A stretch of 37,057 nucleotides of DNA from a virus (Duplodnaviria > Heunggongvirae > Uroviricota > Caudoviricetes). The notes below the pieces were generated by a model. It saw only the letters and a program-made list of their open reading frames with translations. It was not told the origin of the DNA and made no database searches. Numbering within the stretch: position 1 is the first letter of the stretch; every line of letters starts with the position of its first letter. The translations under genes were made by a program, and so were the position numbers. The stretch spans positions 1 through 37,057 of IMG/VR virus record IMGVR_UViG_2648501920_000014; one strand, 5' to 3'. Shown here one piece after another: positions 4,588 to 34,262 of the stretch.

Positions 4588-4602
4588 TTACCTTTCGGGT
4601 AA
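4588..4602. promoter_or_regulatory. Operator-like inverted repeat TTACC-TTTCG-GGTAA
   Basis: 15-bp dyad with A/T flanks; between tail fibre start (4483) and LexA box; one of at least 14 copies. Confidence 0.4.
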
Positions 4603-4641
4603 TTTGCAAAACGTGCTGGATAGCAAACAAATTATTTGATA

Positions 4642-4657
4642 CTGTATAAATATACAG
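4642..4657. promoter_or_regulatory. LexA (SOS) box CTGTATAAATATACAG
   Basis: Perfect CTGT-N8-ACAG with AT-only spacer, centre of an 18-bp near-palindrome; 21 nt upstream of ATG 4679. Confidence 0.6.
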
Positions 4658-4678
4658 TTATTGCATGGAGAAGATAAG

Positions 4679-4936
4679 ATGCAGCAGTATCACTATCCAC
4701 TGGAAGACGGATTTACCGAAAGGATTCACACGCCGGGAGGCGTCAGGTCACTGGTGGAGGGATCGCACTTGATGAAATTACTCCGGGATCTCGATAAGGA
4801 TGGATTTAATGTCGATGGCCCACTTGCCGAACTGACTGCACTAATTAACTACGTCACCAGCTCACAGATGTCTATGCGGGATCTGCAAACACATCTCGAC
4901 TATTGTGCCGAACAATTACGAAAACAAACCAGATAA
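4679..4936 (+). CDS. Small protein (85 aa), SOS-box-fronted; paralogue of the C-terminal domain of the adjacent Bro-N protein; candidate antirepressor
   Basis: ATG at 4679 with GGAG SD (track ORF begins at TTG 4661); stop TAA 4934-4936; by-eye alignment to Bro-N residues ~165-228. Confidence 0.55.
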   Translation: MQQYHYPLEDGFTERIHTPGGVRSLVEGSHLMKLLRDLDKDGFNVDGPLAELTALINYVTSSQMSMRDLQTHLDYCAEQLRKQTR

Positions 4937-4939
4937 GGT

Positions 4940-4968
4940 TTGCAATTACCAAATGGAGTGCTTATATT
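4940..4968 (+). promoter_or_regulatory. Sigma70-like promoter TTGCAA-17-TATATT
   Basis: -35 TTGCAA 4940-4945, 17-bp spacer, -10 TATATT 4963-4968; operator repeat overlaps the -10 end. Confidence 0.4.
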
Positions 4969-4982
4969 TACCTTTGCGGTAA
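4968..4982. promoter_or_regulatory. Operator-like inverted repeat TTACC-TTTGC-GGTAA
   Basis: 15-bp dyad overlapping the -10/+1 region of the promoter at 4940-4968. Confidence 0.4.
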
Positions 4983-5072
4983 ATTTACATCGCACTCCTC
5001 TTGTGCCATAGTAATCGGGCACTGGCAAAATCCAGTGCCGGGATTGGCGTCCCGGGTTACTAAGTGGCGCAT

Positions 5073-5096
5073 ACCACGCCAGACGTGGTTTTTTTA
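5073..5096 (+). terminator. Rho-independent terminator (ACCACG-CCAGA-CGTGGT + T-run)
   Basis: 6-bp stem, 5-nt loop, followed by 6-7 T; ends an ORF-free transcript of about 120 nt that starts near 4975. Confidence 0.5.
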
Positions 5097-5251
5097 TGCG
5101 TTAAGCACAGCTATATCCGAATTATGGTGGGCTGGGCAGGGGTCCGAAAGGACGCCGGTACCACTTAGGCCGGTACGCCAACCTTGTCCAGTTCACCACC
5201 AGTAATTGGCGTTGCGGTGGTGATTAAAATCACTAAGTGGAGATAACCACC

Positions 5252-5962
5252 ATGGCTAATGCTCAAACTGCCATCTTCAAATTTGAATCTGTTAACCCTA
5301 TCCGTTCCATCATTATCGATGGCCAACCATGGTTTGTAGCCCAAGACGTTTGTAGTGCGCTGCGTATCCAAAACGTCACCCAAGCACTTGAAAAACTGGA
5401 TGATGATGAAAGGTCTATGTTCAACATAGGGCATGAACATCGTGCAATTTTTGACAGCCGAGTAAAAGAGATCAACATCATCTCCGAGTCAGGCCTCTAC
5501 ACACTGATCCTCCGCTGCCGCGACGCAGTGACACCAGGCACTATCCCCTACCGCTTTCGTAAATGGGTTACAGGTGAGGTTCTTCCTCAGATCCGCCGCA
5601 CCGGAAGTTACATTAAAAACTCGCTCCCGCAGGAAGAACGCATAAAGATAGTTGCCGACCAGGTAGCCAACGCCACAGCATCAGCAGTGATGCAGGCAAT
5701 GAAGATAGAGAACAAAACCTACAGTGCCCCACTGAAGCCCGGCTACCGCAGCCTGATTCATTCTCCGTCTGGTGTTCTCGGCCTGACGGAGAACTCACTG
5801 CTGATGAATCTGCTGAACCAGTTACAGGAAGACGGGCACGACGTATCGGGCGCGGCGGCGGAGCTGACCACCATGTTCTGCTACATTGTTGGTGTGAGCA
5901 AATGCCTGCGTGATATCCAGACCCACGCGGAGTACATCAACGACAAGGCTGGGTTCTTCTGA
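5252..5962 (+). CDS. Bro-N domain protein (antirepressor-like) with C-terminal domain paralogous to the 4679-4936 product
   Basis: ATG at 5252 with GGAGA SD (track ORF begins at GTG 5237); N-terminal ~115 aa match the Bro-N pattern (WFVAQDVCSALRI, GLYTLIL, FRKWVTGEVLPQIRRTGSY). Confidence 0.7.
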   Translation: MANAQTAIFKFESVNPIRSIIIDGQPWFVAQDVCSALRIQNVTQALEKLDDDERSMFNIGHEHRAIFDSRVKEINIISESGLYTLILRCRDAVTPGTIPYRFRKWVTGEVLPQIRRTGSYIKNSLPQEERIKIVADQVANATASAVMQAMKIENKTYSAPLKPGYRSLIHSPSGVLGLTENSLLMNLLNQLQEDGHDVSGAAAELTTMFCYIVGVSKCLRDIQTHAEYINDKAGFF

Positions 5963-6034: not shown

Positions 6035-6049
6035 TTACCTTAAAGGTAA
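6035..6049. promoter_or_regulatory. Operator-like inverted repeat TTACC-TTAAA-GGTAA
   Basis: Immediately upstream of GGAGG SD and ATG 6062; overlaps the -10 of a TTGCAG-17-TACTAT promoter (6007-6035). Confidence 0.4.
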
Positions 6050-6061
6050 AGGAGGCGCGAT

Positions 6062-6229
6062 ATGACAGCGTTGAAAAATCGTACTCAGCACAATGAACAA
6101 GCCAAGCAATGCTGGGATGTCATTGGAAAAGTTATGCTTGGCCGCGCAAGCAAAGAGCGCGACAAGGATATGGTTTACCAGACAGGAACATCTTTCAGCG
6201 ACTTCAAGGCGGCATTTCGCTCCAAATAG
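6062..6229 (+). CDS. Small protein (55 aa), unknown function; first gene of an AT-rich two-gene cassette
   Basis: ATG at 6062, GGAGG SD at 6051-6055, stop TAG 6227-6229; below the 60-aa track cutoff, read by hand. Confidence 0.4.
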   Translation: MTALKNRTQHNEQAKQCWDVIGKVMLGRASKERDKDMVYQTGTSFSDFKAAFRSK

Positions 6230-6249
6230 AAGCACATCAGGAGTTTTCC

Positions 6250-6690
6250 TTGAAGTTTAACATTAGAATATCTAATAGTTTTCTACATGGGGAAAGCAAC
6301 ACCCCTTTCGCTGTAGACGGACCTTTCCTTACTGATGATGAAATAAAAATCATACAAAGTTTTTTAGAGGATGTTGCCAATGGAAGGGCGCTTGTTGGAA
6401 AAAACAAGCCCTCGTGGGTTGATGATAACCATGATAAAATTCCCGGCTCAGACAATTATGAGCAAGAGAATTATTGGCATTATCATTGTGGGCCAACATG
6501 GTATCCAAACACATTTAAGAATTATACCATTAACTTAAATTTCAACCCTGGCGGAAGGCATTCTAATGAATGCATTCATTATGCAAAAAATGATAATGAA
6601 ATTGTCATTGTTGGATTTTCAAGAGAACACATACCTTTCCTTTCATCAGATGGAAACAACAATCCGCTTTTTAATGATGAAGAAGAATAG
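6250..6690 (+). CDS. Hypothetical protein (~146 aa), acidic C-terminus (NDEEE), AT-rich
   Basis: No internal Met; most plausible start is TTG 6250 with AGGAG SD at 6239-6243 (track ORF begins at ATG 6109, which would overlap the upstream gene); stop TAG 6688-6690. Confidence 0.45.
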   Translation: MKFNIRISNSFLHGESNTPFAVDGPFLTDDEIKIIQSFLEDVANGRALVGKNKPSWVDDNHDKIPGSDNYEQENYWHYHCGPTWYPNTFKNYTINLNFNPGGRHSNECIHYAKNDNEIVIVGFSREHIPFLSSDGNNNPLFNDEEE

Positions 6691-19174: not shown

Positions 19175-20167
19175 TTACACCACACGGGCTTCTGTTTCCA
19201 GAAGCGCATCAGTTTCACGGATTGGTACACCACGGAATGAAGTCCACCACTCGCCTTCTGTCTCTTTTACGCTGATCGCCAGAGATGTTTTCTCCAGAGA
19301 TTGCAGATCAAGAGCCTGGCCTACAGTGCGGTTCATGTAGAACACCGGGCGACCCATTCCACGGTTTGGAATGCGATGCAGTGCTTTAACCATCAACTTC
19401 GCAATATTTGCGGCAGAGGAAGGTTCTGAAAGATTGCTGACATCGATGTTTGCAATGCGAACAACATAACGCCAGTCACGCAGAGCAAGTCCGTTGTCCC
19501 ATTTGTAATGGGTACGGTAGCCTTCGTACTTGCCGCCATTAGCATCTTCCAGTGTCACCTGGCCTTTATCTTCCATCTGAATGCCAGCCTTCTGCCCTTT
19601 CGGGAAGATGCCATGCACGGTGTTTTCGCCCCACACCACTAACCAGATTGAGGTGTTATCTGTGCCCGTGCCACCAGCATCAATGATGTTCTGAGCATTA
19701 CCTGCAGACAGGCTGGAATAGCGGGAGGACAGTCCCATAAACTGCTGAGGGTTAACGCTGGAATCACCATAAAACAGCGTCTGCGCCATCTGCTGATTCA
19801 TCGCTTCAATAAATGCGCGGTCTTCAGACAGGCGGAATTCGGCGGTATTGCCGTTCAGATCAGCCAGTGACTTATCGACTTCAGCATAGGTTTCCAGCAT
19901 GCCAACGGAATCGGTTACCTGCACTGTGGTTGATTTGCTTGGCTGTACGCCATAGTTCAGCAAACGCCAGGTAGCTGAAGGTAAACCAGAACGAATGGTG
20001 GTTCGGTGTCCGGTAGGAAGGTTCCCTTCGACAAAAGGCATATCCTGAAGGATCGGGTTAGTTTGACCGAGAAGCTCGATAATCTTATCGACTTTCCCGT
20101 TTGGATCGACGCGCTTACCCCAGTCAGCCAGCGTTAGCGCAGTTAAGCCTTTAACAGCCATTGTCAT
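19175..20167 (-). CDS. Major capsid protein (330 aa)
   Basis: ATG at 20167; position after portal and scaffold genes; size typical of podovirus capsid proteins. Confidence 0.65.
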   Translation of the reverse strand: MTMAVKGLTALTLADWGKRVDPNGKVDKIIELLGQTNPILQDMPFVEGNLPTGHRTTIRSGLPSATWRLLNYGVQPSKSTTVQVTDSVGMLETYAEVDKSLADLNGNTAEFRLSEDRAFIEAMNQQMAQTLFYGDSSVNPQQFMGLSSRYSSLSAGNAQNIIDAGGTGTDNTSIWLVVWGENTVHGIFPKGQKAGIQMEDKGQVTLEDANGGKYEGYRTHYKWDNGLALRDWRYVVRIANIDVSNLSEPSSAANIAKLMVKALHRIPNRGMGRPVFYMNRTVGQALDLQSLEKTSLAISVKETEGEWWTSFRGVPIRETDALLETEARVV

Positions 20168-23157: not shown

Positions 23158-23172
23158 TTACCTTTCAGGTAA
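23158..23172. promoter_or_regulatory. Operator-like inverted repeat TTACC-TTTCA-GGTAA
   Basis: 15-bp dyad about 90 nt upstream of the 23067 start; a TTGACA hexamer lies at 23136-23141. Confidence 0.4.
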
Positions 23173-23494: not shown

Positions 23495-23571
23495 GTGGCA
23501 TTAGCTCAGTCGGACAGAGCAACCGCCTTCTAAGCGGTTGGTCGCAGGTTCGAATCCTGCATGCCACGCCA
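23495..23571 (+). tRNA. tRNA-Arg (anticodon TCT, reads AGA)
   Basis: Cloverleaf read by hand: acceptor GTGGCAT/ATGCCAC, D-stem GCTC/GAGC, anticodon stem ACCGC/GCGGT with loop CTTCTAA, T-arm GCAGG-TTCGAAT-CCTGC, discriminator G, encoded CCA. Confidence 0.85.
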
Positions 23572-23657: not shown

Positions 23658-23734
23658 CAGCAGGACGCCATTGCGATGACTTCATGCTGTAAACCAGTAC
23701 AGCCACGGAAGGCATAACTCATTGCTTCCAGTTC

Positions 23735-25632: not shown

Positions 25633-26225
25633 TGATTACCATCCTGACGTTCTTTGAGTCGCTTCCTGGCTGCCGCTATGCGATCAGCGATTGTCACATT
25701 CACATTAACATCCATGCGTTCTTTGAACGCGTTGACGTCGACGTGCTTACCAATCAGTTCGAGGTTCTTCACCTTGTCAGGCCATTTAATTTTTTTGAGG
25801 ATTGTCTCTATCGAATCCTCGTTCATGTTCATGATGGTCGATGACAGATCAAAGCCACTAAGCGTAGTGCGCCAGATTTTCGGCCACTCGCGGATTGGCT
25901 TAAGGCTCCCATCGTCGTTGAGGATATCAATCACGTCCATCTGGTCGATCTCCACCAGGCGCATGAGAACGTAATCAGCACTGACACGCATTCGTTTGTT
26001 GCGCTCTTCCATCAACTCGGCAATCCGTTTTTGAATGCGTTCATCGCGCATCATGACACTGGCTTTAACTGCCGCTGTATTTGGGGAGAATCCTGCGTTA
26101 ATCGCTGCCTGAGTCTGGTTTTCAGGCGTTTTGATGTATGACTGACAATAAGCCTCCTGCATTGCTGTGAGCGGCTTAAATTGCGTTGATTTGCGTTTAT
26201 AGGTTTTAGGTTCAGCAGGCATCAT
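25629..26225 (-). CDS. Terminase small subunit
   Basis: ATG at 26225 (track ORF extends to TTG 26303); HTH-like segment TAMQEAYCQSYIKTPENQTQAAINAGFS; directly upstream of terL. Confidence 0.6.
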   Translation of the reverse strand: MMPAEPKTYKRKSTQFKPLTAMQEAYCQSYIKTPENQTQAAINAGFSPNTAAVKASVMMRDERIQKRIAELMEERNKRMRVSADYVLMRLVEIDQMDVIDILNDDGSLKPIREWPKIWRTTLSGFDLSSTIMNMNEDSIETILKKIKWPDKVKNLELIGKHVDVNAFKERMDVNVNVTIADRIAAARKRLKERQDGNQ

Positions 26226-26257
26226 AACCACCGTGGTAATAGTTACCGTTGTGGTAA
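26225..26257. promoter_or_regulatory. Two adjacent operator-like repeats (TAACC-ACCGT-GGTAA and TTACC-GTTGT-GGTAA) at the terS start
   Basis: Sites at 26225-26239 and 26243-26257, overlapping the terS start codon and its SD. Confidence 0.4.
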
Positions 26258-28678: not shown

Positions 28679-28693
28679 TTACCCCTTAGGTAA
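28679..28693. promoter_or_regulatory. Operator-like inverted repeat TTACC-CCTTA-GGTAA
   Basis: Ends 3 nt from start codon 28675; the repeat spacer contains that gene's SD. Confidence 0.4.
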
Positions 28694-28740
28694 TTAAAAA
28701 CCACATAAGACACGAAATCAATAGATTTTAGAATATTTTA

Positions 28741-28755
28741 TTACCTCTAAGGTAA
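28741..28755. promoter_or_regulatory. Operator-like inverted repeat TTACC-TCTAA-GGTAA
   Basis: Second copy in the same intergenic region, centres 62 bp apart. Confidence 0.4.
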
Positions 28756-30686: not shown

Positions 30687-30701
30687 TTACCTTTGAGGTA
30701 C
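30687..30701. promoter_or_regulatory. Operator-like inverted repeat TTACC-TTTGA-GGTAC
   Basis: One mismatch in the right half-site; between the cro terminator and the zinc-binding protein gene. Confidence 0.35.
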
Positions 30702-30756: not shown

Positions 30757-30987
30757 TCATGAGTAGAAGAAGTATGCCAGTTCTGCTTTTGAGCGCAGCC
30801 ATTGTCTTGTTTTACAGGCTTTAAAAAGCCCATTCATCAATACTTTACCTGGCATTTTGCGCTTACCTGTTAAGTGAGTCTGGATATAGTGACTCGTCGT
30901 TCCGGCTTCCTGTGCGAAGGCTTCACGCTCATCCGGAGTAAGTGCAAGCCAGTGCTTTTTGAAATCGAAATGTCCGTTATCGCTCAT
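30757..30987 (-). CDS. Cro-like / CII-like HTH regulator (76 aa)
   Basis: ATG at 30987; HTH-like LTPDEREAFAQEAGTTSHYIQTHLTGKR; divergent from the repressor across the operator cluster. Confidence 0.5.
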   Translation of the reverse strand: MSDNGHFDFKKHWLALTPDEREAFAQEAGTTSHYIQTHLTGKRKMPGKVLMNGLFKACKTRQWLRSKAELAYFFYS

Positions 30988-31023: not shown

Positions 31024-31086
31024 TCACCCATAAGGTAACAAAAATCAAGGATAGTTACCTATGAGGTGCATTTACCTGTTGGGTAA
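31024..31086. promoter_or_regulatory. Operator cluster (OR-like): three inverted repeats between the cro-like and repressor genes
   Basis: TCACC-CATAA-GGTAA (31024-31038), TTACC-TATGA-GGTGC (31055-31069), TTACC-TGTTG-GGTAA (31072-31086); last two abut. Confidence 0.5.
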
Positions 31087-31141: not shown

Positions 31142-31726
31142 ATGAAAAGTATCCAGGACGTCCGCAGGCAAAATCTCAACGACTTGATCGACCGTGAATT
31201 CAATGGTGTTCAGACGCGGATGGCAGAAAAACTTGGAACTCAGGCAAATCTGGTAAACCGCTGGGCTCTTGGCAAGAAGGTTATCGGCGACCAGGTTGCG
31301 CGAAAAATTGAAGCTGCCGCCAATAAACCACGTAACTGGCTTGATATCGATCGCTCGCTTTCTCAGGAAGGTTTTCAGCCTGTCGGCCCAAGCGACATTG
31401 GTCAGCTGGCGGCTCACAACCTGGAACGCTGGATGAGCGAAAGCCGCGACCTTTCAACACAGGGAAAACTTCACCGCGCATCCGGCGTCGCCCAGGTGAC
31501 AATCAGCCGCCTGTTAAACAATGAGGTCAGCGTTTCCATTTCCACCCTGGAGAATGTTGCATCCGCATTCGGGCGTCACGGCTATGAATTACTGATTCAC
31601 CCGCACGACCCTGCGACCATCAACTATGACCGCTCGCGCTACGCATTGTTACCCGAAACCGAGAAAGCAAAGATCGAAAGTTACATTGAATTTGTCATCA
31701 ACCAGAACGAAAAAAACAAACAATAA
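31142..31726 (+). CDS. Phage repressor with two HTH domains and no S24 autocleavage domain
   Basis: ATG at 31142; two HTH-like segments (LGTQANLVNRWALGKKVIGDQVARKIEAAANKPRNWLD and ASGVAQVTISRLLNNEVSVSISTLENVASAFG); no Ala-Gly cleavage site or Ser/Lys dyad seen; stop TAA 31724-31726. Confidence 0.65.
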   Translation: MKSIQDVRRQNLNDLIDREFNGVQTRMAEKLGTQANLVNRWALGKKVIGDQVARKIEAAANKPRNWLDIDRSLSQEGFQPVGPSDIGQLAAHNLERWMSESRDLSTQGKLHRASGVAQVTISRLLNNEVSVSISTLENVASAFGRHGYELLIHPHDPATINYDRSRYALLPETEKAKIESYIEFVINQNEKNKQ

Positions 31727-31746: not shown

Positions 31747-31771
31747 AAGCCGCCTTATGGCGGCTTTTTTA
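31747..31771 (+). terminator. Rho-independent terminator after the repressor gene
   Basis: AAGCCGCC-TTAT-GGCGGCTT followed by TTTT. Confidence 0.65.
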
Positions 31772-31783
31772 TTGCCCATGAAA

Positions 31784-31860
31784 TTACCTTACGGGTAATT
31801 TTTTTAACTCATATCTATTGACATCAAACCAAATACGAATAATCATTACCTCAACGGTAA
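31784..31860. promoter_or_regulatory. OL-like region: two operator repeats flanking a TTGACA promoter
   Basis: TTACC-TTACG-GGTAA (31784-31798), -35 TTGACA (31818-31823), TTACC-TCAAC-GGTAA (31846-31860) over the likely -10/+1; followed by GAGG SD and ATG 31880. Confidence 0.5.
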
Positions 31861-32034: not shown

Positions 32035-32334
32035 ATGAACGTTAATCAGCAGAAAAATCTTCAAAAAATCATGCTGGCATTCGACAAGGACTACCGCCTG
32101 TCAGAACAGCTATATGACCGACAAGTTGAACTGATCGAGAGCATCCGGCTTCATCAACTAGCCTCAACTTTCGACGCTGTAACAGGTAAAGGCGTTCGCC
32201 AGGAAGTACTGGAGGCCGCTAAAGACAGTCCAGAGTTCGAAGAACTGATGGATTCCTACCGGCGCGAGGCAATGGCAATTATCGCCCGCTGGGATCTGGC
32301 TGATCAGCTTGATGGACAGAGGGACGCGGCATGA
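32035..32334 (+). CDS. Hypothetical protein (99 aa)
   Basis: ATG at 32035 with GGGAGGG SD (track ORF starts at ATG 32020); ATGA overlap with the next gene. Confidence 0.5.
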   Translation: MNVNQQKNLQKIMLAFDKDYRLSEQLYDRQVELIESIRLHQLASTFDAVTGKGVRQEVLEAAKDSPEFEELMDSYRREAMAIIARWDLADQLDGQRDAA

Positions 32335-33230
32335 TGCGGAACGCTGGAATCATGGATAGAACAAAATACATCGGAGGAAGCGATGTTGCAGGGATTCTTG
32401 GAATTAGCCCATGGCGCACCCCGCTTGAGGTTTATCTGGATAAGGTACAGCCACGTGTCAAACCAGTAGACCCAAGCAAGCAGAAAGTTTTCACGCGTGG
32501 CCAGCGTATGGAGCCATACGTAATAGACCTGCTTTCTGAGGAAACAGGGATGGAAATCGTTCATCGCGGAAACCGCTATATCCACCGTGATTACGATTTT
32601 ATTGCAGCTGAGATCGATGCAGAAGCAGCGTCAGGCGAGAACATTGAGATCAAAACAGTTAGTCCGTTCAAAGCCAAAGAATGGGGAGAAATCCAGACAG
32701 ATGCAATTCCTGTGCATTACACGGCCCAGGCCATGCACGGGTTGATGGTTACAAACAAACAGGTATGCGTTTTCGGTGTGCTTATCGGTGGCGACGACTT
32801 CCGAATCTATCGGGTTGAGCGTGATGAAGAAACTATCCAGGCAATCTTAGAAAAAGAAATCGCTTTCTGGGACCGAGTGAAAAATCTTAACCCGCCGGAA
32901 GCTACCAGCGTAAGCGATATATCGCTGATGTTTGAGAAAGATGCCGGGACAAGTATCGAGGCTGACGGAAAGGCACTCGCACTATTCAACGATCTACGAG
33001 ACATGAAGTCACGCAGAAAATCACTGGAAGAAGAAATAGCTATATCAGAAGAGAAGCTGAAGATGTACATGCAAGAGCACTCAGTCCTGACCCTGGACGG
33101 AAAGCCGCTCTGCACATGGAAATCTCAGATCAGCAACAGATTCGACCAGAAGCTATTCCAGTCAGTACACCCTGAGTTATTCGAAAAATTCAAAACAACA
33201 ACGACACAACGCGTCTTCAGAATGAAGTAA
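32331..33230 (+). CDS. YqaJ-like recombination exonuclease
   Basis: ATG at 32331 with GAGGGA SD; N-terminal motif IGGSDVAGILGISPWRTPLEVY typical of YqaJ-type exonucleases; followed by RecT. Confidence 0.75.
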   Translation: MMRNAGIMDRTKYIGGSDVAGILGISPWRTPLEVYLDKVQPRVKPVDPSKQKVFTRGQRMEPYVIDLLSEETGMEIVHRGNRYIHRDYDFIAAEIDAEAASGENIEIKTVSPFKAKEWGEIQTDAIPVHYTAQAMHGLMVTNKQVCVFGVLIGGDDFRIYRVERDEETIQAILEKEIAFWDRVKNLNPPEATSVSDISLMFEKDAGTSIEADGKALALFNDLRDMKSRRKSLEEEIAISEEKLKMYMQEHSVLTLDGKPLCTWKSQISNRFDQKLFQSVHPELFEKFKTTTTQRVFRMK

Positions 33231-33239
33231 GGAGAAAAA

Positions 33240-34262
33240 ATGTCTATCAATGCACTTAAGGCAGCGGCTACCGGTAACCAAGTTGCACATCATAATGAGA
33301 AACCAACAACTCTGGCCGGACTTCTGGCAGACCCAAAAATTAAAGCTCAGATGGCTTTGGCACTTCCAAAGCACATGACAGCAGACCGTCTGGCGCGCAT
33401 AGCAACCACAGAGATCCGAAAGGTTCCAAAACTTGCATCATGCGACCAAGCCAGCTTCCTGGGGGCAATTATGCAATGTGCCCAATTGGGTCTTGAACCA
33501 GGCGGAGCTCTTGGACACGCTTACCTGATACCGTTCGACAAACGCCAGAAAGTAAATGGAAGATGGGAAACCGTATCTACAGAAGCACAGCTGATTATCG
33601 GCTATCGCGGAATGATTGACCTTGCCCGCCGCTCTGGGCAGATCCTGAGTATCTCGGCTCGTACCGTACATACAAACGACAAATTCAGCTACTCATACGG
33701 CCTGGAAGAAACGCTCGAGCATTTACCTTGCGAAACAGGTGACCGCGGAGAATTAACGCACGTTTACGCCGTTGCACGACTGAAAGATGGCGGAGTCCAA
33801 TTTGAAGTTATGAGCCGGGCAGACATTGAGAAAGTTCGTGCACTGAGCAAAGCCGGTAGCAGTGGCCCATGGGTTGATCACTTCGATGAGATGGCTAAAA
33901 AAACAGTAATTCGCCGACTATTCAAATATCTTCCTGTTTCTATTGAAATGCAGAAGGCTGTTGTTATGGATGAGCGCGCTGAAGCTGGACTTAGCCAAGA
34001 TAACGCAGCTGTTATCACTGGTGAATATTCCGTAGTTGACGATGAGCGTCAACACCTGTCGCCAATTTCAGATTCAGAACGAGAAGAAGCTCGAGAATAT
34101 ATCATCGCGATACTTAATAGCCTGGATCCATCTGCTGAAGATGCAAAAACGATGTTCAAGCGCGCTGAAAATGAGATTAACACCATGGCTGAAAAGCTCG
34201 GTGATGAATATCACCAAAAATTCATGATGACGCTTAACGATATGCGTCCAGAATTCGAGTAA
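33240..34262 (+). CDS. RecT-family single-strand annealing protein
   Basis: ATG at 33240 with GGAG SD; RecT-like core (YLIPFDKRQ, IIGYRGMIDLARRSG, SSGPWVDHFDEMAKKTVIRRLFKYLP). Confidence 0.8.
   Translation: MSINALKAAATGNQVAHHNEKPTTLAGLLADPKIKAQMALALPKHMTADRLARIATTEIRKVPKLASCDQASFLGAIMQCAQLGLEPGGALGHAYLIPFDKRQKVNGRWETVSTEAQLIIGYRGMIDLARRSGQILSISARTVHTNDKFSYSYGLEETLEHLPCETGDRGELTHVYAVARLKDGGVQFEVMSRADIEKVRALSKAGSSGPWVDHFDEMAKKTVIRRLFKYLPVSIEMQKAVVMDERAEAGLSQDNAAVITGEYSVVDDERQHLSPISDSEREEAREYIIAILNSLDPSAEDAKTMFKRAENEINTMAEKLGDEYHQKFMMTLNDMRPEFE

Follow-up and report, generated by a model that had tools for sequence, protein, structure and literature searches.

A LexA-controlled antirepressor as the probable inactivator of an S24-less immunity repressor in a phiV10/epsilon15-type prophage

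The 194-amino-acid protein Rep, encoded on the plus strand at 31142..31726, is very probably the main lysogeny (immunity) repressor of a prophage of the phiV10/epsilon15 type (Uetakevirus), an orthologue of Rep from Salmonella phage SPC32H that is inactivated by a LexA-controlled antirepressor, Ant. The open reading frame begins with ATG and its presence was confirmed in the window, meaning the whole stretch of viral DNA that was analyzed (37,057 nucleotides; IMG/VR record IMGVR_UViG_2648501920_000014). The SPC32H Rep-Ant antirepression system (PDB 5D4Z, 5D50) was reportedly described by Kim and Ryu (J Virol, 2013) and by Kim et al. (PNAS, 2016). Published work on SPC32H already covers the repressor, the absence of a self-cleavage domain, the antirepressor, and the structure of the complex, and the novelty that an earlier note on this DNA had implied was unjustified. 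As a discovery the finding carries little weight, since the identical E. coli protein has already been annotated and tested.

Rep shares 100% amino acid identity with gp40 of phiV10 (phiV10p40) and with ORF21 of vB_EcoP_ZX5, and 41.8% identity with SPC32H Rep over 98% of its length (tblastn), with epsilon15 Rep (gp38) likewise at 42%. In phmmer searches, residues 1-190 of the 194 match PDB 5D50_A (E=4e-42) and PDB 5D4Z (Rep 92-198) is matched at E=4e-20; the same two entries, 5D50 and 5D4Z, are the best Foldseek matches of the Rep model. The GenBank note on phiV10 gp40 reads 'two helix-turn-helix motifs', the epsilon15 and SPC32H orthologues carry the annotation 'repressor', and the epsilon15 record cites 5D50_A and annotates repressor dyads. 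This immunity region is present in 540 of 5426 complete E. coli genomes (about 10%).

Functional evidence is available from the ZX5 study, in which ORF21 was tested as a repressor: its overexpression resulted in zero free phage, and holin and endolysin transcripts fell by 99.97-99.99%. Because the identical ZX5 protein represses on overexpression and the orthologues are annotated 'repressor', we read Rep as the immunity repressor, and the earlier note had rightly done the same. It is hardly credible that immunity is provided by a gene other than 31142..31726. On the model of immI of P1/P7, a c4-like RNA at 5120-5203 could count as a second determinant of the immunity type, but such an RNA would silence only an antirepressor and not the lytic promoters. 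The arrest of lytic growth by the overexpressed ZX5 protein and the annotation of the epsilon15 and SPC32H orthologues speak against this alternative as well, as does the location of Rep's cognate dyads on early promoters.

Rep lies divergent from a 76-amino-acid cro-like gene on the minus strand (30757..30987), which matches the 'transcriptional repressor' family phrog_35 (E=5.6e-13) and is syntenic with epsilon15 gp39 and phiV10p41. The earlier description of a 194-residue protein in this arrangement, with two HTH-like segments, agrees with the ORF, Pfam/PHROG, and AlphaFold2 results. The AlphaFold2 model (mean pLDDT 77) contains two all-helical modules, residues 4-59 and 83-151, with a low-confidence linker (residues 74-82) between them and, beyond the second, a C-terminal helix (residues 172-193) within a tail that is modeled at low confidence in the monomer. 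Since each of the three segments aligns with SPC32H Rep and carries invariant residues, the model and the alignments together suggest a three-part layout: an N-terminal HTH DNA-binding domain (residues 1-72; 31142..31357), a middle domain of HTH_3 fold (residues 83-152; 31388..31597), placed by Pfam, AlphaFold2, and alignment with 5D4Z as the likely counterpart of the SPC32H Rep MDD, and a C-terminal tail (residues ~157-194; 31610..31723), the likely counterpart of the SPC32H Rep CAD, all on the plus strand.

The N-terminal domain comprises modeled helices at residues 4-19, 24-31, 35-43, and 50-59, of which helix 24-31, a turn, and recognition helix 35-43 (ANLVNRWAL) form the predicted HTH. 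Residues Q24, R26, E29, N36, R40, and W41 are invariant throughout the family, Salmonella and Klebsiella relatives included. In Pfam, the N-terminal segment (residues 21-61) gives only a sub-threshold YdaS/Cro-like match, and the PHROG repressor families phrog_5736 (residues 4-76, E=2.8e-11) and phrog_12107 (residues 1-75, E=4e-10) cover it. The Pfam HTH_3 match (E=1.2e-9; 38.5 bits, cut-off 23) falls in two stretches, the best at residues 106-147, and HTH_26 also hits residues 104-144. A recent internal duplication was considered as the origin of the two HTH modules and rejected, as BLASTP of the N-terminal against the middle domain found no meaningful similarity. The C-terminal tail is a third conserved element that the earlier note overlooked, with the invariant motif I160, Y162, D163, A168, L170, K175, K177, S180, I182, F184, and Q188.

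Self-cleavage stimulated by RecA has general precedent in the repressors of lambda, P22, and 434. Rep lacks the domain for it, as the earlier note had maintained: Pfam returned no Peptidase_S24 match even at E<=1, and a Foldseek search of the model against the PDB retrieved SPC32H Rep and otherwise only HTH proteins of the XRE type; a LexA/CI C-terminal domain was not among the matches. No S24 domain was detected in Rep or in any of its 86 homologues, which are mostly about 190-200 amino acids long and match Pfam families of the HTH type only. Cleavage of Rep at a cryptic non-S24 site would have the general lambda/P22/434 precedent on its side, and no specific support for it was found. Both the Pfam and the fold searches argue against it, as do the size and the exclusively HTH-type families of the homologues and the presence of a dedicated LexA-controlled antirepressor gene, and we consider such cleavage extremely improbable.

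The operators expected of such a repressor can be recognized. The consensus is a symmetric 15-bp dyad, (A)TTACC-N5-GGTAA(T), in which ACC/GGT is invariant in 28/28 half-sites. Three copies lie between the cro-like gene and rep, namely TCACCCATAAGGTAA (31024-31038), TTACCTATGAGGTGC (31055-31069), and TTACCTGTTGGGTAA (31072-31086), with start-to-start spacings of 31 and 17 bp, and the first shares bases with a promoter-like site of the minus strand (31041-31013). Both the three-site layout and the half-sites are shared with SPC32H, epsilon15, and Klebsiella phage BUCT711. On the other side of rep, an intrinsic terminator (31747..31776, plus strand; an 8-bp stem with 6 GC pairs, then a T run), also annotated in phiV10, is followed by an early, recombination-side promoter region (31784..31860, plus strand). 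Its promoter, TTGACA-17-AATCAT at 31818-31846, is flanked by two perfect dyads (31784-31798 and 31846-31860) whose epsilon15 counterparts are annotated 'protein_bind: repressor'. Sites equivalent to these two and to the three beside the cro-like gene, equally spaced, are found in SPC32H as well as in epsilon15.

Seven further Rep-type dyads of 15 bp start at 6035, 23158, 26225, 26243, 28679, 28741, and 30687; they occupy intergenic or operon-start positions. Across the window there are 10 perfect dyads and 3 with one mismatch, none of them within a clear coding region, against expectations from mononucleotide shuffles of 0.03 perfect and 1.1 one-mismatch dyads and from dinucleotide shuffles of 0.52 dyads at <=1 mismatch. 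Rep-type dyads are thus far commoner than expected by chance, and the epsilon15 record annotates equivalent dyads genome-wide. We also observed that, with few exceptions, the transcription units of the window are preceded by a Rep-type dyad.

The symmetry of these sites bears on how Rep may read DNA. The earlier note had proposed that the two HTH domains each contact one half of the dyad, so that a single monomer would span the 15 bp, its N-terminal HTH bound to one half-site and its second HTH to the opposite one. Two HTH-type modules do occur in a single chain, and the stronger Pfam HTH_3 match belongs to the second. Yet the operator is a true palindrome, and identical half-sites require a single kind of reading head in two copies, whereas the two modules are unrelated in sequence and have different putative recognition helices. 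Moreover, the NLVNRW helix is kept across the phages that share TTACC, whereas the middle-domain helix varies. The literature on SPC32H points the same way: PMC9986798 divides SPC32H Rep into an N-terminal DBD, a middle dimerization domain (MDD), and a C-terminal CAD, and according to papers that cite Kim et al. 2016, each DNA-binding pair consists of N-terminal domains contributed by different dimers within a tetramer. The proposal was therefore not supported, and a monomer spanning the dyad is very unlikely. By analogy with SPC32H, it is instead the N-terminal HTH domain that would read the symmetric operator, with the middle HTH-fold domain serving as a dimerization module and the conserved C-terminal tail probably assembling tetramers. 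Rep would then occupy the three dyads that separate rep from the cro-like gene and the two around the early promoter, and the single dyads before most other operons are probably bound too.

The antirepressor gene, ant, encodes 85 amino acids at 4679..4936 on the plus strand. Its product matches PDB 5D50_E, 'Anti-repressor protein' (E=1.4e-46), and is 86.7% identical to that of SPC32H ant (tblastn). The gene adjoins the tailspike gene, the same position as in SPC32H, and the ~35 phage records that contain rep are also those that contain ant. A predicted LexA (SOS) box, TACTGTATAAATATACAGTT (4640..4659, plus strand), ends 20 bp before the start codon; it contains an exact CTGT-N8-ACAG and agrees with TACTG(TA)5CAGTA at 18/20 positions. 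A homologous box precedes SPC32H ant, and a LexA-like box with one mismatch lies upstream of ant in Klebsiella phage BUCT711. A second CTGT-N8-ACAG, at 23687-23702, was considered as a LexA site and set aside as a probable chance match, because its spacer is not AT-rich and 7/100 shuffles gave at least 2 matches.

A Rep-type dyad, TTACCTTTCGGGTAA (4588..4602), precedes the LexA box by 38 bp, and its position is conserved in SPC32H, in epsilon15 (annotated repressor site 19895-19911), and in BUCT711. The order of dyad, LexA box, and ant is identical in SPC32H and similar in BUCT711. A consensus promoter scan gave no convincing ant promoter; candidate hexamers near the dyad and the LexA box were seen by eye only. 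No Pfam family matches Ant above threshold, its PHROG family, PHROG_450, is labeled 'unknown function', and all annotated E. coli Uetakevirus records examined list the small gene as 'hypothetical protein'. The practical gain of this analysis is thus one of annotation. The experimental paper on ZX5 tested the neighboring Bro-N protein as antirepressor, not the small Ant.

It had been suggested in the earlier note that the SOS-box-fronted gene at 4679 inactivates the repressor, and this is right, if already published: an 87% identical orthologue of SPC32H Ant stands behind a LexA box. PDB 5D50 is SPC32H Rep co-crystallized with Ant, and PMC9986798 assigns both tetramerization and Ant binding to the CAD/TetDloop of SPC32H Rep. 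According to citing papers, the Rep tetramer is disrupted by an Ant tetramer, and a review places LexA-controlled Ant in Salmonella prophages, SPC32H among them. From this analogy we infer the same behavior for the present Rep-Ant pair. Since Rep has no S24 autopeptidase, DNA damage would leave it uncleaved; self-cleavage of LexA would derepress ant (4679-4936), and Ant would contact the C-terminal region of Rep protein-to-protein, thereby breaking the DNA-binding tetramer and freeing the operators. Conservation of the interface is assumed here, with Rep 42% and Ant 87% identical to their SPC32H counterparts. No experiments on exactly this Rep-Ant pair were found in the literature searched.

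Downstream of ant lies a second putative antirepressor gene with a leader of the P1-immI/IsrK type (4968..5203, plus strand). The leader comprises a Rep-type dyad (4968-4982), an a1b1/IsrK element (5006-5095, plus strand), and a C4-like antisense RNA (5120-5203, plus strand). Rfam scores are 67.7 bits for isrK (GA 50) and 66 bits for C4 (GA 45), with c4-a1b1 at 44.1 bits, just short of its GA of 46.7. Two pairs of 7-8-mer targets, 5044-5050/5060-5067 and 5206-5212/5233-5240, show complementarity to the C4 loops, and the target at 5233-5240 lies over the ribosome-binding site of the gene that follows. This gene (5237..5962, plus strand; GTG at 5237, with an ATG at 5252) encodes a Bro-N::Ant-like fusion of 241 amino acids, in which residues 22-117 match Pfam Bro-N (E=1e-19), residues 160-233 share 43% identity with the small Ant (E=2e-16), and residues 158-239 match PHROG_450 (E=4e-36). 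A tblastn search of the window for further rep- or ant-like genes found nothing beyond this C-terminal Ant-like domain. The interval separating the C4 RNA from the Bro-N gene was searched for a leader peptide resembling orf45 or icd and yielded no convincing candidate, and a CTGT-N8-ACAG search found no LexA box at the module.

It is conceivable that induction proceeds mainly through the Bro-N::Ant-like protein, gated by the c4/IsrK RNA and the Rep dyad, with the small Ant in an auxiliary role. The Ant-like C-terminal domain of the protein, which belongs to the same PHROG family, is consistent with this, as is the position of the P1-type C4 RNA directly upstream with a target over the ribosome-binding site; in the ZX5 study, overexpression of the Bro-N 'anti-repressor' cut the lysogen count about 1000-fold. 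However, the module is missing from SPC32H, whose named antirepressor is the small Ant, and it is the small ant that is conserved alongside rep in about 35 records. Because it has no LexA box, the Bro-N module also cannot sense SOS on its own. We therefore regard a leading role for it as unlikely; Bro-N::Ant is most likely an amplifier or second input rather than the primary trigger, which would be the small Ant.

Somewhat speculatively, the phage may possess two antirepressors that share one Ant-type domain and respond to different inputs, LexA and DNA damage in one case and the Rep dyad with the c4/IsrK RNA in the other. If so, removal of some Rep by the small Ant would allow transcription of the second antirepressor gene and the production of more antirepressor. 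The result could be commitment by positive feedback, or a second, SOS-independent induction route together with anti-immunity against related prophages, and the dyad 38 bp upstream of the ant LexA box would add a further feedback link between Rep and ant. No description of such a two-antirepressor feedback scheme was found in the literature searched, and within the system only the Bro-N::Ant paralogue controlled by c4/IsrK might repay experiments.

Among known systems, lambda CI, P22 C2, and LexA resemble Rep in their N-terminal HTH, in multiple dyad operators at divergent promoters, and in the maintenance of lysogeny; unlike them, Rep has no S24 domain, that is, neither a Ser/Lys catalytic domain nor a module for RecA-stimulated cleavage. 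The repressor-antirepressor pairs of coliphage 186 (CI/Tum) and of Gifsy and Fels-2 are reportedly covered by the 1998 work of Shearwin and the 2011 work of Lemire. A review presents these pairs as a non-cleavable repressor combined with a small LexA-repressed antirepressor. The likeness is one of logic only, SOS induction by protein-protein inactivation, whereas the combination of an HTH, a dimerizer of HTH fold, and a tetramerizing tail is specific to the SPC32H Rep family.

A third likeness concerns the neighboring module and not rep. As in P1/P7 immI (c4 RNA-icd-ant) and in isrK-orf45-anrP of Gifsy-1, the C4 and isrK matches score above GA, and as in immI there are two target pairs for the C4 loops, one of them over the ribosome-binding site of the Bro-N antirepressor. 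Unlike in those systems, no ORF resembling icd or orf45 is evident in the stretch from the RNA to the antirepressor gene, the promoter has a Rep-type dyad, and the antirepressor ends in a domain resembling SPC32H Ant.

The closest relative with a described mechanism is SPC32H, also of the genus Uetakevirus. Rep and Ant are both full-length orthologues (42% and 87%), rep is divergent from a cro-like gene and ant lies beside the tailspike gene in both phages, and the operator half-sites, the three-site spacing, and the layout of Rep dyad, LexA box, and ant are shared. The differences are that the present Rep has diverged, with 58% of its positions changed and a linker about 5 residues shorter, that the host of the present phage is E. 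coli, and that SPC32H lacks the Bro-N-fused Ant paralogue and the c4/IsrK leader found here. From phiV10 gp40 and ZX5 ORF21, the repressor itself is no different.

The immunity repressor Rep is encoded on the plus strand by an ORF with an ATG start (31142-31726; 194 aa), divergent from a 76-aa cro-like ORF (30757-30987). The earlier note saw two HTH-like segments in Rep and no LexA/CI-type autopeptidase (S24) domain, and both observations are borne out. In a Pfam search, the best of two stretches matched by HTH_3 was aa 106-147 (E=1.2e-9), which HTH_26 also matched; aa 21-61 gave a Cro/YdaS-like match below threshold only, and Peptidase_S24 was not found even at E<=1. The N-terminal 75 residues match PHROG repressor families (E ~1e-10 to 1e-11), and phrog_8 matches the whole protein (E=4.5e-27). 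An AlphaFold2 model based on 25 homologues (mean pLDDT 77) places helical modules at aa 4-59 and aa 83-151, with a disordered linker between them (aa 74-82) and a C-terminal helix after the second (aa 172-193). When this model was compared with the PDB by Foldseek, the repressor of Salmonella phage SPC32H was the first match and the rest were only XRE-type HTH proteins (SinR, HigA, and DdrO among them), with no LexA/CI catalytic-domain fold among the matches. No sequence similarity was found between the two HTH-type modules. Rep also possesses a conserved C-terminal tail that the earlier note had missed.

The SPC32H repressor and its antirepressor, Ant, form a structurally solved pair. Rep aa 1-190 match chain A ('Repressor') of PDB 5D50, titled 'Rep-Ant complex from Salmonella-temperate phage' (E=4e-42), and Rep also matches 5D4Z (Rep 92-198; E=4e-20). 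The 85-aa product of ant (4679-4936, plus strand) matches chain E of 5D50 ('Anti-repressor protein'; E=1.4e-46) and is 86.7% identical to SPC32H Ant. The SPC32H record names both genes (rep, SPC32H_041; ant, SPC32H_020), and their neighbours are those of the window, with a small cro-like gene divergent from rep and the tailspike gene divergent from ant. Homologues of the two genes occur in essentially one set of phage records (36 for full-length rep, 35 for ant). Judged at the sequence level, Rep belongs to the family of SPC32H Rep, with all testable defining features present. Rep homologues form 86 clusters in a large protein database, most of approximately 190-200 aa with Pfam families of the HTH type only.

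The 1.1-kb immunity region exhibits 97%–99% nucleotide identity with phiV10, vB_EcoP_ZX5, phiv142-3, TL-2011b, O157 typing phages 9 and 10, and others, all members of the genus Uetakevirus (epsilon15-like podophages), and is carried by 540 of 5426 complete E. coli genomes at 95%–99% identity. phiV10p40 and ZX5 ORF21 have the same amino-acid sequence as Rep (100% identity); identity is 75%–78% for Enterobacter phage homologues, 45% for Klebsiella phage homologues, and 42% for epsilon15 gp38 and SPC32H Rep. The phiV10 GenBank note on the identical protein reads 'two helix-turn-helix motifs (PF01381); similar to putative repressor epsilon15p38'. Ant and its target Rep thus differ in their closeness to the SPC32H counterparts, at 87% identity for Ant and only 42% for Rep. 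Either conservation is much stronger in the surface of Rep that contacts Ant (the conserved C-terminal tail) than elsewhere in the protein, or an Ant module is able to work between heteroimmune relatives, which would mean prophage cross-talk. Elsewhere, the window encodes an exonuclease (299 aa) and RecT (340 aa) as separate genes (32331-34262), as does epsilon15, whereas the phiV10 record shows one fused recET gene at the equivalent position.

The SPC32H mechanism is drawn here from papers that cite the primary work, and the PNAS abstract on SPC32H Rep-Ant reportedly gives the same picture. A 2018 review (citing Kim and Ryu 2013) states that several Salmonella prophages, SPC32H among them, can produce an antirepressor once LexA has cleaved itself, and that this protein inhibits the repressor via protein-protein interaction. 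According to a 2022 NAR paper summarising Kim et al. 2016, SPC32H Rep forms dimers and tetramers, the tetramer binds DNA with the pairs on a palindromic site coming from different dimers, and an Ant tetramer binds two Rep dimers, thereby breaking the Rep tetramer. A 2023 Acta Cryst D paper (PMC9986798) describes an N-terminal DNA-binding domain (DBD), a middle dimerisation domain (MDD), and a C-terminal domain (CAD) of p53-like strand-helix fold that serves tetramerisation and Ant binding. By analogy, window Rep would comprise a DBD at aa 1-72, an MDD at aa 83-152 (the Pfam HTH_3 match), and a CAD at aa ~157-194, and invariant residues lie in all three parts among E. coli, Salmonella, Klebsiella, and Serratia members. 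The predicted DBD recognition helix is aa 35-43, ANLVNRWAL. Since its NLVNRW helix is conserved among phages with the TTACC half-site while the equivalent middle-domain helix varies, the N-terminal domain fits as operator reader. In the ZX5 study, overexpression of the identical protein in infected cells resulted in zero free phage and decreased holin and endolysin transcripts by 99.97%–99.99%.

A LexA box, TACTGTATAAATATACAGTT (4640-4659), ends 20 bp ahead of the ATG of ant and agrees with the E. coli consensus TACTG(TA)5CAGTA at 18 of 20 positions. The equivalent sequence in SPC32H is TACTGTATGTTTATACAGT, and a Klebsiella relative has a version with one mismatch. A second exact CTGT-N8-ACAG match, CTGTAAACCAGTACAG (23687-23702), is probably due to chance, as its spacer is not AT-rich and at least two such matches arose in 7 of 100 shuffles. 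A phage-borne tRNA-Arg (anticodon TCT; 23495-23571) lies between portal-side structural genes and terminase genes.

The 15-bp dyad of the earlier note is real: TTACC-N5-GGTAA occurs in the window as 10 perfect and 3 one-mismatch copies, against chance expectations of 0.03 and 1.1 (mononucleotide shuffles), or 0.52 with at most one mismatch (dinucleotide shuffles). All 13 are intergenic or at operon starts. ACC/GGT is invariant in 28 of 28 half-sites, making the dyad strictly symmetric. The earlier note's idea that each HTH domain contacts one dyad half is unsupported, because a palindrome has to be read by two copies of one head and the second HTH-fold module of the solved homologue is described as a dimerisation domain. 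Three dyads between the cro-like gene and rep (31024, 31055, and 31072; one with two mismatches) are spaced by 31 and 17 bp, and spacing and half-sites are equal in SPC32H, epsilon15, and Klebsiella phage BUCT711. Two perfect dyads (31784 and 31846) flank a TTGACA-17-AATCAT promoter just past the rep terminator; epsilon15 has homologous sites there with the annotation 'protein_bind: repressor'. Further repressor sites in the epsilon15 record precede terS, gp3, the ant homologue gp19, and the RuvC-like gene; they match window sites 26225/26243, 23158, 4588, and 28679/28741. Dyads at 4588-4602 (38 bp ahead of the ant LexA box), 6035-6049, 23158-23172, 26225-26257, 28679-28755, and 30687-30701 precede nearly every transcription unit. 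Outside the immunity region, these are putative repressor sites, with equivalents annotated as repressor-binding in epsilon15. The perfect dyad at 6035 is directly followed by a strong Shine-Dalgarno sequence and a 55-aa ORF (6062-6229, phrog_8607) overlapping a 193-aa ORF (6109-6690, phrog_5954), both function-unassigned; the region 6035-6690 differs between related phages and resembles a cargo (moron-like) slot.

Directly downstream of ant lies a second module (4968-5962), which SPC32H does not possess, consisting of a P1/P7 immI-type (c4/IsrK) antisense RNA and a Bro-N::Ant-like gene. A Rep-type dyad (4968-4982) sits within its promoter-like hexamers. Rfam detected isrK (5019-5095; 67.7 bits) and C4 antisense RNA (5120-5203; 66 bits) above their gathering scores, the former ending in a terminator, and c4-a1b1 (5006-5058) slightly under its threshold. 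The C4-like RNA contains two single-stranded stretches, each with one complementary site upstream of the RNA and one downstream: CCACUUAG (5161-5168) pairs with 5060-5067 and 5233-5240, and ACGCCAA (5175-5181) with 5044-5050 and 5206-5212. The target at 5233-5240 overlaps the GGAG ribosome-binding site of the fusion gene (5237-5962), a layout shared with P1/P7 immI. The fusion protein carries a Bro-N domain (E=1e-19), and its C-terminal 80 aa are 43% identical to small Ant (E=2e-16); this domain matches PHROG_450 (E=4e-36), the family of small Ant. The studied analogue of the module is Gifsy-1 isrK-orf45-anrP. We hypothesize that Bro-N::Ant serves as a further antirepressor of this Rep, gated by Rep and antisense RNA rather than LexA. 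If so, it would either amplify induction by feedback or supply an input independent of SOS. This dual-antirepressor arrangement is the sole lead with some novelty.

Because it lacks an S24 domain, Rep must be inactivated by another route, and the earlier proposal that the SOS-box-fronted gene at 4679 serves this purpose is correct and coincides with the published mechanism of the family; no alternative immunity repressor was found in this analysis. The observation was therefore correct and its interpretation largely so, with the explanation already in the literature. The outstanding point concerns annotation and is not a biological novelty: every annotated E. coli Uetakevirus record examined (phiV10, ZX5, phiv142-3, TL-2011b, and others) labels small ant 'hypothetical protein', PHROG_450 is labelled 'unknown function', and the ZX5 study tested a Bro-N protein as antirepressor. 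The repressor system itself is already known. Rep is not a lambda-type S24 repressor, and a LexA-gated antirepressor is also found in 186 CI/Tum and the Gifsy repressor/antirepressor pairs, which resemble the present pair in mode of action.
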